Source: Octopus sinensis (taxonomy: Eukaryota). Taken from it: a stretch of 11,479 bases of DNA. The DNA lies in assembly GCF_006345805.1 (NCBI RefSeq), contig NW_021826983.1:1-11479 (forward strand), written 5' to 3'. Under the pieces are notes generated by a model that was not told the DNA's origin, searched no databases, and worked only from the letters and a program-made list of their open reading frames with translations. Below are positions 576 to 10,996 of the stretch, piece after piece; positions within the stretch are counted from its first letter, which is position 1; the number at the start of each line of letters is the position of its first letter. The translations under genes were made by a program, and so were the position numbers.

Positions 576-1226
576 ACAGGAGAGAAACCGTATCCTTGTG
601 ATATCTGTGGTAAATCATTTTCTAGCGGTGTTCACTTATCTACACACAAATATATTCATACAGGAGAGAAGGAATATCACTGTGATGTCTGTGGTAAATC
701 ATTCTCTGCAAGTAGTACCCTAACAAAACACATATGTCTTCATACAGGAGAGAAGCCATATCACTGTGATGTCTGTGGTAAATCATTCTCTGCAAGTAGT
801 ACCCTAACAAAACATATATGTCTTCATACAGGAGAGAAGCCATATCACTGTGGTGTCTGTGGTAAATCATTCTCTGCAAGTAGTACCCTAACAAAACACA
901 TATGTCTTCATACAGGAGAGAAGCCATATCACTGTGATGTCTGTGGTAAATCATTCTCTGCAAGTAGTACCCTAACAAAACACATATGTCTTCATACAGG
1001 AGAGAAGCCATATCACTGTGATGTATGTGGTAAATCATTCTCTGCAAGTAGTACCCTAACAAAACACATATGTCTTCATACAGGAGAGAAGCCATATCAC
1101 TGTGATGTCTGTGGTAAATCATTCTCTGCAAGTAGTACCCTAACAAAACACATATGTCTTCATACAGGAGAGAAGCCATATCACTGTGATGTCTGTGGTA
1201 ATCATTCTCTGCAAGTAGTACCCTAA
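555..1226 (+). CDS. Portion open as literally written: 223 aa with 7 complete C2H2 fingers, truncated by the first 1-nt deletion near 1200
   Basis: ORF track 555..1226. It contains the divergent finger at 591 plus array units 1-6. In unit 7, ggtaaatca reads ggtaatca, shifting to NHSLQVVP*. This is the product only if that deletion is real. Confidence 0.5.
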
Positions 1227-4200
1227 CAAAACACATATGTCTTCATACAGGAGAGAAGCCATATCACTGTGATGTATGTGGTAAATCATTCTCTGCAAGT
1301 AGTACCCTAACAAAACATATATGTCTTCATACAGGAGAGAAGCCATATCACTGTGATGTCTGTGGTAAATCATTCTCTGCAAGTAGTACCCTAACAAAAC
1401 ACATATGTCTTCATACAGGAGAGAAGCCATATCACTGTGATGTCTGTGGTAAATCATTCTCTGCAAGTAGTACCCTAACAAAACACATATGTCTTCATAC
1501 AGGAGAGAAGCCATATCACTGTGATGTCTGTGGTAAATCATTCTCTGCAAGTAGTACCCTAACAAAACACATATGTCTTCATACAGGAGAGAAGCCATAT
1601 CACTGTGATGTCTGTGGTAAATCATTCTCTGCAAGTAGTACCCTAACAAAACACATATGTCTTCATACAGGAGAGAGCCATATCACTGTGATGTATGTGG
1701 TAAATCATTCTCTGCAAGTAGTACCCTAACAAAACACATATGTCTTCATACAGGAGAGAAGCCATATCACTGTGATGTCTGTGGTAAATCATTCTCTGCA
1801 AGTAGTACCCTAACAAAACACATATGTCTTCATACAGGAGAGAAGCCATATCACTGTGATGTCTGTGGTAAATCATTCTCTGCAAGTAGTACCCTAACAA
1901 AACACATATGTCTTCATACAGGAGAGAAGCCATATCACTGTGATGTCTGTGGTAAATCATTCTCTGCGAGTAGTACCCTAACAAAACACATATGTCTTCA
2001 TACAGGAGAGAAGCCATATCACTGTGATGTCTGTGGTAAATCATTCTCTGCAAGTAGTACCCTAACAAAACATATATGTCTTCATACAGGAGAGAAGCCA
2101 TATCACTGTGATGTCTGTGGTAAATCATTCTCTGCAAGTAGTACCCTAACAAAACATATATGTCTTCATACAGGAGAGAAGCCATATCATCGTGATGTCT
2201 GTGGTAAATCATTCTCTGCAAGTAGTACCCTAAAAAACACATATGTCTTCATACAGGAGAGAAGCCATATCACTGTGATGTCTGTGGTAATCATTCTCTG
2301 CAAGTAGTACCCTAACAAAACATATATGTTTTCATACAGGAGAGAAGCCATATCACTGTGATGTCTGTGGTAAGTCATTTTCTGCAAGTAGTACCCTAAC
2401 AAAACACATATGTCTTCATACAGGAGAGAAGCCATATCACTGTGATGTCTGTGGTAAATCATTCTCTGCAAGTGGTACCCTAACAAAACACATATGTCTT
2501 CATACAGGAGAGAAGCCATATCACTGTGATGTCTGTGGTAAATCATTCTCTGCAAGTAGTACCCTAACAAAACACATATGTCTTCATACAGGAGAGAAGC
2601 CATATCACTGTGATGTCTGTGGTAAATCATTCTCTGCAAGTAGTACCCTAACAAAACACATATGTCTTCATACAGGAGAGAAGCCATATCACTGTGATGT
2701 CTGTGGTAAATCATTCTCTGCAAGTAGTACCCTAACAAAACATATATGTTTTCATACAGGAGAGAAGCCATATCACTGTGATGTCTGTGGTAAATCATTC
2801 TCTGCAAGTAGTACCCTAACAAAACACATATGTCTTCATACAGGAGAGAAGCCATATCACTGTGATGTCTGTGGTAAATCATTCTCTGCAAGTAGTACCC
2901 TAACAAATCACATATGTCTTCATACAGGAGAGAAGCCATATCACTGTGATGTCTGTGGTAAATCATTCTCTGCAAGTAGTACCCTAACAAAACACATATG
3001 TCTTCATACAGGAGAGAAGCCATATCACTGTGATGTCTGTGGTAAATCATTCTCTGCAAGTAGTAGTACCTAACAAAACACATATGTCTTCATACAGGAG
3101 AGAAGCCATATCACTGTGATGTCTGTGGTAAATCATTCTCTGCAAGTAGTACCCTAACAAAACATATATGTCTTCATACAGGAGAGAAGCCATATCACTG
3201 TGATGTCTGTGGTAAATCATTTTCTGCAAGTAGTACCCTAACAAAACACATATGTCTTCATACAGGAGAGAAGCCATATCACTGTGATGTCTGTGGTAAA
3301 TCATTCTCTGCAAGTAGTACCCTAACAAAACACATATGTCTTCATACAGGAGAGAAGCCATATCACTGTGATGTATGTGGTAAATCATTCTCTGCAAGTA
3401 GTACCCTAACAAAACACATATGTCTTCATACAGGAGAGAAGCCATATCACTGTGATGTCTGTGGTAAATCATTCTCTGCAAGTAGTACCCTAACAAAACA
3501 CATATGTCTTCATACAGAGAGAGAAGCCATATCACTGTGATGTATGTGGTAAATCATTCTCTGCAAGTAGTACCCTAACAAAACACATATGTCTTCATAC
3601 AGGAGAGAAGCCATATCACTGTGATGTATGTGGTAAATCATTCTCTGCAAGTAGTACCCTAAAAAACACATATGTCTTCATACAGGAGAGAGAAGCCATA
3701 TCACTGTGATGTCTGTGGTAAATCATTCTCTGCAAGTAGTACCCTAACAAAAACAATATGTCTTCATACAGGAGAGAAGCCATATCACTGTGATGTCTGT
3801 GGTAAATCATTTTCTGCAAGTAGTACCCTAACAAAACACATATGTCTTCATACAGGAGAGAAGCCATATCACTGTGATGTCTGTGGTAAATCATTCTCTG
3901 CAAGTAGTACCCTAACAAAACACATATGTCTTCATACAGGAGAGAAGCCATATCACTGTGATGTATGTGGTAAATCATTCTCTGCAAGTAGTACCCTAAC
4001 AAAACACATATGTCTTCATACAGGAGAGAAGCCATATCACTGTGATGTCTGTGGTAAATCATTCTCTGCAAGTAGTACCCTAACAAAACACATATGTCTT
4101 CATACAGGAGAGAAGCCATATCACTGTGATGTATGTGGTAAATCATTCTCTGCAAGTAGTACCCTAACAAAACACATATGTCTTCATACAGGAGAGAAGC

Positions 4201-10200: not shown

Positions 10201-10996
10201 AACAAAACACATATGTCTTCATACAGGAGAGAAGCCATATCACTGTGATGTCTGTGGTAAATCATTCTCTGCAAGTAGTACCCTAACAAAACACATATGT
10301 CTTCATACAGGAGAGCCCATATCACTGTGATGTCTGTGGTAATCATTCTCTGCAAGTAGTACCCTAACAAAACACATATGTCTTCATACAGGAGAGAAGC
10401 CATATCACTGTGATGTCTGTGGTAAATCATTCTCTGCAAGTAGTACCCTAACAAAACACATATGTCTTCATACAGGAGAGAAGCCATATCACTGTGATGT
10501 CTGTGGTAAATCATTCTCTGCAAGTAGTACCCTAACAAAACATATATGTTTTCATACAGGAGAGAAGCCATATCACTGTGATGTCTGTGGTAAATCATTC
10601 TCTGCAAGTAGTACCCTAACAAAACACATATGTCTTCATACAGGAGAGAAGCCATATCACTGTGATGTCTGTGGTAAATCATTCTCTGCAAGTAGTACCC
10701 TAACAAACATATGTCTTCATACAGGAGAGAAGCCATATCACTGTGATGTCTGTGGTAAATCATTCTCTGCAAGTAGTACCCTAACAAAACACATATGTCT
10801 TCATACAGGAGAGAAGCCATATCACTGTGATGTCTGTGGTAAATCATTCTCTGCAAGTAGTACCCTAACAAAACACATATGTCTTCATACAGGAGAGAGG
10901 CAATATCACTGTGATGTCTGTGGTAAATCATTCTCTCAAAGTACTGACTTCAAAAGACACAAACATATTCAAACAGGGGAGAAAGGAAAAGGGTAG
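555..10996 (+). CDS. Giant tandem C2H2 (Kruppel-type) zinc-finger protein; frameshifted as assembled (about 3,486 aa if indels are corrected)
   Basis: ATG at 555 with A at -3. Continuous C-x2-C-x12-H-x3-H fingers joined by TGEKP linkers run to an in-register TAG at 10994-10996. Reconstruction: 40 aa leader + 122 x 28 aa + 30 aa tail. The net indel sum across the array is -19 nt, with 24 units carrying frameshifts. No substitution creates a stop in the finger frame. Zinc-finger identity is secure; whether the full ORF is intact is not. Confidence 0.75.
591..659 (+). other. Unique intact N-terminal C2H2 finger [23 protein letters not shown]
   Basis: All four Zn ligands are present. Helix residues -1 S, +2 V, +3 H, +6 T differ from the array. 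It is followed by the variant linker TGEKE. Confidence 0.92.
5630..8057 (+). repeat. Higher-order block copy A (units 60-88), paralogous to 8477-10903
   Basis: Shares the ordered series of diagnostic unit variants with units 94-122 (see findings). Confidence 0.75.
8477..10903 (+). repeat. Higher-order block copy B (units 94-122), paralogous to 5630-8057
   Basis: GTA, GTA+CAT, GTA+CCT and CAT+TTT(Leu>Phe) units occur in the same order and spacing as in copy A, offset by about 34 units. Confidence 0.75.
10904..10996 (+). other. Unique terminal degenerate finger [23 protein letters not shown] plus tail TGEKGKG and stop
   Basis: Preceded by the variant linker TGERQ. The first 33 nt equal the array consensus, then the helix diverges (-1 Q, +3 D, +6 R). 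The second His position is CAA (Gln). TAG is at 10994-10996. Confidence 0.9.

Follow-up and report, generated by a model that had tools for sequence, protein, structure and literature searches.

Coleoid cephalopods carry an expanded family of C2H2 zinc-finger genes (PMC9068888, PMC9795677), and a role against transposons has been proposed for its expansion in octopus (PMC10547256). The stretch analysed here (the window) is one entire contig of 11,479 bp, NW_021826983.1, within the 2.72-Gb Octopus sinensis assembly GCF_006345805.1 of 13,516 contigs, and it holds a copy of such a gene in which one finger is repeated in tandem. Like the family, as represented by its homologues P0153 (O. sinensis) and P0150 (O. 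vulgaris), this copy has 84-bp units of the form YHCDxCGKSFS...HTGEKP together with the same leader region and flanks; its relatives are clustered on contigs 27, 28 and 30. It differs from them in having 122 units of a single finger and in having lost the family start codon. The array as assembled is crossed by frameshifts, which an original prediction made from the letters alone had taken for sequencing errors rather than decay. Our analysis confirmed the observation and supports that reading: we favour, with moderate confidence, a minisatellite that is young and sits in a damaged copy of a zinc-finger gene; its insertions and deletions (indels) would nearly all be errors, and it would persist by youth rather than by need for a protein.

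The minisatellite that encodes the PRDM9 fingers (PMC2779102) is similar in its concerted evolution, with identical copies and a changing unit number in PRDM9 and identical units and a block duplication in octopus. PRDM9 is reported there to have about 7–23 fingers, at most five of them identical per cluster, against 122 units here; it has KRAB and SET domains, whereas none was found for the octopus open reading frame (ORF) among the 25 listed of 31 Pfam families, the relatives starting in the same stretch and any upstream exons past the contig end lying out of sight; and it changes fast at helix positions −1, 3 and 6, whereas no variant that has spread in the octopus array lies in the recognition helix. 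Because it lacks a SET or KRAB domain and a diversified helix, the octopus array, although it appears to work like the PRDM9 minisatellite in concerted evolution, is not a member of that type. The coding variable number tandem repeat of MUC1 offers another likeness, a single-base frameshift hidden in one unit and found by alignment-free k-mer depth (PMC10338300); there the variant is genuine and cuts short a known protein, whereas the 24 apparent frameshifts in octopus are probably artefacts, in an array without a known protein. The diagnosis of error is known in kind. Among 342 retrieved zinc-finger proteins the most fingers in any one is 70, nearly all different from one another, a number exceeded both by the 122-unit array and by a second array of about 333 near-identical fingers on contig 27 (C27).

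Tandem Repeats Finder called one array with a period of 84 bp (571–10943, 123.7 copies), which anchored splitting and translation resolved into 122 finger units at 675–10903 (this and all other features are on the plus strand). Fifty-eight of the units are identical; 97 measure 84 bp, 15 measure 83 bp, four 82 bp, three 85 bp, two 86 bp and one 81 bp. The 28-residue unit has the C-X2-C-X12-H-X3-H spacing, Phe/Leu core and TGEKP linker of a classical C2H2 (Krüppel-type) finger. The array matched Pfam families PF00096 (E=1e-34) and PF13465 (E=1e-54), and the top structure matches were ZNF568, Aart and PRDM9. A divergent single finger, SSGVHLSTH, precedes the array (591–674; also in loci L010 and L012), and a terminal degenerate finger (HKHIQ) with a stop codon, common to the closest relatives, follows it (10904–10996). 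Both junctions between flank and array are clean, in frame and match family fingers. Outside them lie the flanks of a multicopy zinc-finger (ZNF) gene cassette, the 5′ flank (1–554) being 95–97% identical to at least seven other loci and the 3′ flank (10997–11479) 92–98% identical to at least eight; at ten loci read, flanks of the same type enclose only 3–19 diverse fingers. These homologous flanks and the shared finger library place the locus in the expanded octopus C2H2 family, and the helix of the amplified finger, SASSTLT, is also found in L016.

The counts given in the original prediction, 26 indel-bearing units of which 24 are net frameshifting, were reproduced exactly by anchored splitting. 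The events number 28, of which 22 are deletions and 6 insertions, and lie at 1200, 1676, 2234, 2289, 3066, 3518, 3663, 3686, 3749, 3756, 4275, 4676, 5482, 6038, 6150, 6259, 6586, 6790, 7110, 7358, 8388, 8866, 9197, 10042, 10092, 10316, 10341 and 10707; each of the eight positions offered as examples has a called event no more than 3 bases away (1200, 2234, 3518, 4275, 6038, 7110, 9197, 10042). Thirteen private substitutions stand, as predicted, out of 18 raw calls: two junction letters were removed as the family's terminal linker (unit 122; identical letters in L011), and three gap artefacts (units 29, 48 and 115) read better as paired indels. None is nonsense, which is true as a count and carries no evidential power, the probability of no nonsense among 17 changes being 0.44–0.61. 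Five further substitutions are shared among units, in 24, 18, 5, 5 and 2 copies. The overall deviation of the array is about 0.4%. By hand count 11 of 17 single-base deletions fall in runs of at least two bases, which make up 26 of the 84 unit positions (P=0.004) and are never longer than 4 bases; the first frameshift is a loss of this kind, AAA>AA at 1200–1201. Ten of the 28 events lie in unit positions 50–58, around a C/T variant, and indel-bearing units are not clustered along the array (5 adjacent pairs against 5.3 expected).

A duplication inside the array allows inheritance to be followed. The best local self-alignment of the string of variants (score 22.4, reached by none of 300 shuffles), obtained with scoring weights of our own choosing and with two one-unit skips, pairs block A (units 60–88, 5630–8057) with its copy, block B (units 94–122, 8477–10903). 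Each block has seven indel-bearing units, with different indels. Across the 28 aligned pairs, those marked by substitutions agree in all seven cases and none of the 14 indels is shared, which bears out the claim that the blocks have substitutions but not indels in common; the only two private substitutions are also unshared. Changes after the duplication thus number 14 indels against two substitutions. Several further variant patterns recur along the array.

Comparison with the relatives points the same way. The ratio of indels to substitutions is 28:18 (raw calls) in the array and 10:92 for private changes in the relatives' flanks (P=2e-10); at the flank ratio, assuming a neutral array and genuine private substitutions, 1.2–1.7 real indels would be expected, with a probability of 0.18–0.30 for none. 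The array's own flanks have eight private substitutions and no private indel, where the array rate would predict 3.3 (P=0.04). Diverse arrays from 21 loci (set A, 323 units, the set used for the frameshift test) contain 9 frameshift spacings, where the 122-unit array has 24, and 9 units with a stop, where it has none (P=2e-8). Elsewhere in the family, indels have been inherited: L053 and L054 have a common 2-bp deletion across 42 mismatches, L056 and L057 have 85-bp units in common across 87 mismatches, and in L062 an 8-bp deletion is carried through nine tandem 76-bp units. Real indels in this family are passed to duplicates. Near-identical copies, by contrast, can differ by short-run deletions. 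Three of these in L021 are absent from its near-twin L023 (5 mismatches in 1,553 bp), and the AAA>AA loss seen at 1200 occurs in that motif in L047 and L048 but not in L046 (0 mismatches in 2,900 bp). Since such copies could be alleles or very young duplicates, we take them as a strong hint of error, not proof.

In a separate observation, the near-identical assembled copies L020/L021 (C30, ~9.90–9.92 Mb) and L022/L023 (C9038) are set apart by 1-bp indels about as often as by substitutions (ratios of 10:4, 16:17 and 28:25 in three alignments), which points to residual errors in chromosome scaffolds as well.

The pattern resembles that reported for long-read assemblies, in which repeat indels are biased to deletion, fall in short runs and are left uncorrected where short reads prefer an error-free copy of the repeat (PMC8812927); that report thus puts in print the argument, made in the original prediction, that short-read polishing fails in repeats. 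Its unpolished consensus identities are 99.57–99.94%, with the octopus array at the low end. It concerns bacterial genomes, and our reading of the octopus array rests on assembled sequence. The features of uncorrected consensus error (indels in excess of substitutions, deletion bias, short runs and no inheritance by duplicated copies, 0/14) were all found in the array, whereas those of a decaying pseudogene (substitutions about 9:1 over indels, and inherited lesions) were found only in the leader, 439–554.

A further premise of the original prediction, that neutral decay yields more substitutions than indels, needs a limit. Among new mutations in mice 54% are indels, of which 90% lie in microsatellites, with a rate of about 1e-9 outside them (PMC11789640), so that the rule holds only for sequence other than microsatellites. 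As the mouse excess is bound to microsatellites and runs in the array do not exceed 4 bases, the rule likely applies here. This bears on the possibility that the indels are real, the array being a decaying non-coding satellite and the gene ending at 223 amino acids (aa), the length of the ORF as assembled (555–1226, beginning at a residual Met at 555/558 and closed by the frameshift at 1200). The high mouse indel fraction favours it. So do the frameshifted or decayed arrays that exist in the genome (L053/L054, L056/L057, L062), the recurrence of some indels at one site, and the transitions among private substitutions (7/11, P=0.04), which indicate that real mutation has occurred. We nevertheless regard it as very unlikely. 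It needs about 28 real indels where 1.2–1.7 are expected (Poisson P<1e-23), it leaves the 0/14 result in the blocks unaccounted for, and 121 units of the comparable array on C27 are free of frameshifts.

Several results weigh against our reading of the indels as errors. Recurrence at the same site (AAA>AA four times, at 1200, 2289, 10092 and 10341; GG>G three times, two of them on one haplotype) is what a spreading real variant would give, and the GG>G deletion in units 64 and 73 of block A, on the same haplotype, is a possible exception to non-inheritance. At a fixed lag the periodicity of variants is not significant (P=0.32), and 3 of 29 block pairs disagree. L047 and L048 share their AAA>AA deletion, and another deletion is common to L046–L048, so some short-run deletions there may be real. 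A second collection of arrays (set B, 370 units, mostly picked from open-frame matches) has 32 frameshift spacings, half of which (16) come from a single decayed array, L062; L011–L015, L022, L023, L025, L027, L047, L048 and L054, being redundant or short, were left out of the counts for both sets. The short-run context fits slippage as well as it fits error. With these points set against the indel excess, the non-inheritance, the near-identical copies and the C27 array, most of the 28 indels are still very probably uncorrected long-read consensus errors, judging by sequence comparison; that every one of them is an error is a much weaker proposition, and the reading frame of the real array is probably unbroken or interrupted only once or twice.

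The amplification itself is not confined to this assembly. Exact unit-core contigs in three DNA sequencing runs had depths of 3,177 and 2,940 (X2), 5,577 (X4), and 915 and 673 (X6); low-depth contigs in the same runs had ~45–60, 52–59 and 13–50, respectively. Contig depth does not equal copy number, and one of the three runs could come from the source animal. None of the runs listed as containing the sequence was an RNA run, which carries no weight on expression; X13, taken for RNA by guess only, did not reach 1390–1397. Within the assembly, all 101 exact matches to the 29-base unit-core pattern (100 of them listed) fall on the contig itself; no second assembled copy of the 122-unit array was found, and other fingers in the assembly are at most 91% identical to the unit. 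Twelve unit-core pieces were among the 32 of 5,221 run-contig pieces listed; seven had substitutions and none had gaps, which weakly supports error as the source of the indels. A gapped piece did appear in another run-contig comparison. The run-contig summary tables missed known substitutions, so that their empty indel table is unusable as evidence, a further point on the other side.

These data also bear on whether the unit is truly amplified while the length and order of the contig are partly a product of assembly, block B being block A read twice or the flanks coming from another cassette copy. The contig is short, unplaced and ends in multicopy flanks, the bridge from flank to array is in no listed run-contig piece, the blocks differ by only the two private substitutions and the two unit skips, and unit depth differs among the three runs. 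Set against this, the clean in-frame junctions match family fingers, variant patterns other than the block pair recur along the array, and the rough depth ratios, from tens to more than 100, fit an array of such size. We consider an assembly product improbable; even if it were true, the indels that differ between the blocks would still be errors.

Whether the array encodes anything depends first on the leader. The family start and open leader (MEKSEK...ELI...YDCDIC, as in P0153 and P0150) are absent: AGA stands at 439–441 where the open-leader loci L020 and L058 have ATG, and the first finger (499–554) is dead, with TGT>TGA at 514–516 and a 1-bp deletion after 530. Because they are shared with L009, L016 and L017, these lesions are real and inherited. 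With the family start lost, any ORF must begin at the leftover Met at 555/558 or in an unseen upstream exon. If all units are set to 84 bp, a calculation only, the frame from 555 spans 3,486 aa (40+3,416+30); every unit contains a stop in each of the two shifted frames, so that a single real indel near the beginning would cut the product short within about a unit. Of the original prediction, the part that takes the frameshifts for errors is supported for most of them, and the step from there to one intact ORF is weaker: it overlooked the three upstream lesions, and 1.2–1.7 real indels would be expected if the array is neutral. A single intact working gene is unproven.

Selection on the array protein appears weak or absent. 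We infer this from the dead start and first finger, from the 9 missense changes among 13 private substitutions (neutral expectation 74%), from the broken relatives (L014 and L015 with an in-frame TGA, L038 with a frameshift) and from the amplification in L062 without a frame. Two results speak against weak constraint and, from sequence, hint at use. Of the five substitutions that have spread among units, four are synonymous (P=0.009–0.019) and one replaces Leu by Phe between the His residues. In L016 and L017, whose start is dead in the same way, the frames remain open over 19 and 10 fingers, respectively.

The stronger proposition is that, beyond the indels being errors, the allele works as a gene, translated from Met 555/558 into the 3,486-aa product, whose roughly 123 fingers would coat triplet-repeat DNA or RNA. 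As a general rule a zinc finger reads three bases, so that identical fingers would read a triplet repeat. The whole case for error counts in favour of this, as do the two hints of use and the preservation in the unit of both Cys, both His, Phe, Leu and the TGEKP linker; on C27, moreover, 10.4 kb of array stay in one frame with a single TAG. On the other side, neither the family start nor the first finger survives, the private changes look unselected and include a His>Leu at a zinc ligand, and the synonymous variants match states in other fingers of the family and could be imports. The C27 array contains a nonsense change, and its commonest unit carries Gly>Val. No annotated protein with the helix of either array was found among the 342 retrieved or by exact look-up, the searches with the 122-unit query covering 118–2,000 aa. 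We judge a working gene unlikely, though well short of negligible.

The second array occupies C27:8,047,272–8,075,300 (L040–L043, L060), with about 333 fingers, mostly of helix QSTNLTDH. Its units 10–130 (121 units) show no frameshift and one in-frame 81-bp unit, private substitutions including the TAG being present; on the two sides of that codon a single frame is open for 1,709 and 1,762 codons. Ten of the 16 later frameshifts are at one G/T-polymorphic site (7 losses, 3 gains). The top match for this array is P0241 from the bivalve Solemya velum, a PRDM9-like protein with SET-family Pfam matches and 32 similar fingers. Nearby (C27, ~8,083,070), at L062:3071–3775, a 76-bp finger remnant without the second His stands in about nine tandem copies, showing that a frame-broken finger can amplify too; units upstream of this repeat carry dense single-base deletions. 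We found no report of single-finger mega-arrays in octopus among the papers listed by literature searches; supplements may list such loci.

As a speculation that we think unlikely to hold, both arrays could be giant single-finger genes, of ~123 fingers (3,486 aa) and ~333 fingers, hidden from annotation by assembly errors, with a re-used internal Met, a length varying between animals and products forming polymeric coats on simple-repeat DNA or RNA. For the young, weakly constrained minisatellite that we prefer, a cassette copy damaged at its 5′ end would have acquired a finger with the SASSTLT helix; unequal exchange, in single units and in one step of ~34 units, would then have expanded this finger faster than mutation degraded it; and assembly would have added ~0.3% indel errors beyond the reach of polishing, which would persist because short reads favour error-free unit copies.

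An ordinary assembly error would thus hide an unusual feature, at least two arrays (122 and ~333 near-identical fingers) in one genome, which show the reach of finger-level recombination in this octopus family. How many genes and pseudogenes are counted in this family hinges on how accurately bases are called in repeats. Translation of either array would yield a zinc-finger protein of an extreme kind, whose simple-repeat target could be tested; an untranslated array would be a minisatellite that arose from a coding module.

Three smaller observations concern the cassette and the unit. Cassettes without the family start codon form a dispersed subfamily (positions 439–554 of the window; L009–L018, L038), in which L016 and L017 have long open arrays from an internal Met and L014, L015 and L038 are broken. 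In L013, L014 and L015, from about base 1050, the 3′ flank stops matching at ~11192 of the window and different sequence lies beyond, likely through an insertion in those copies. At unit positions 58–66 (e.g., 732–740) the array reads HICLH, whereas the versions in relatives are HIRLH, HVRLH and HIRFH. The likely cause is a CpG change that became fixed ahead of the amplification; it would add a fifth potential metal ligand. Long antisense ORFs across the array were set aside as the reverse frame of the finger repeat.

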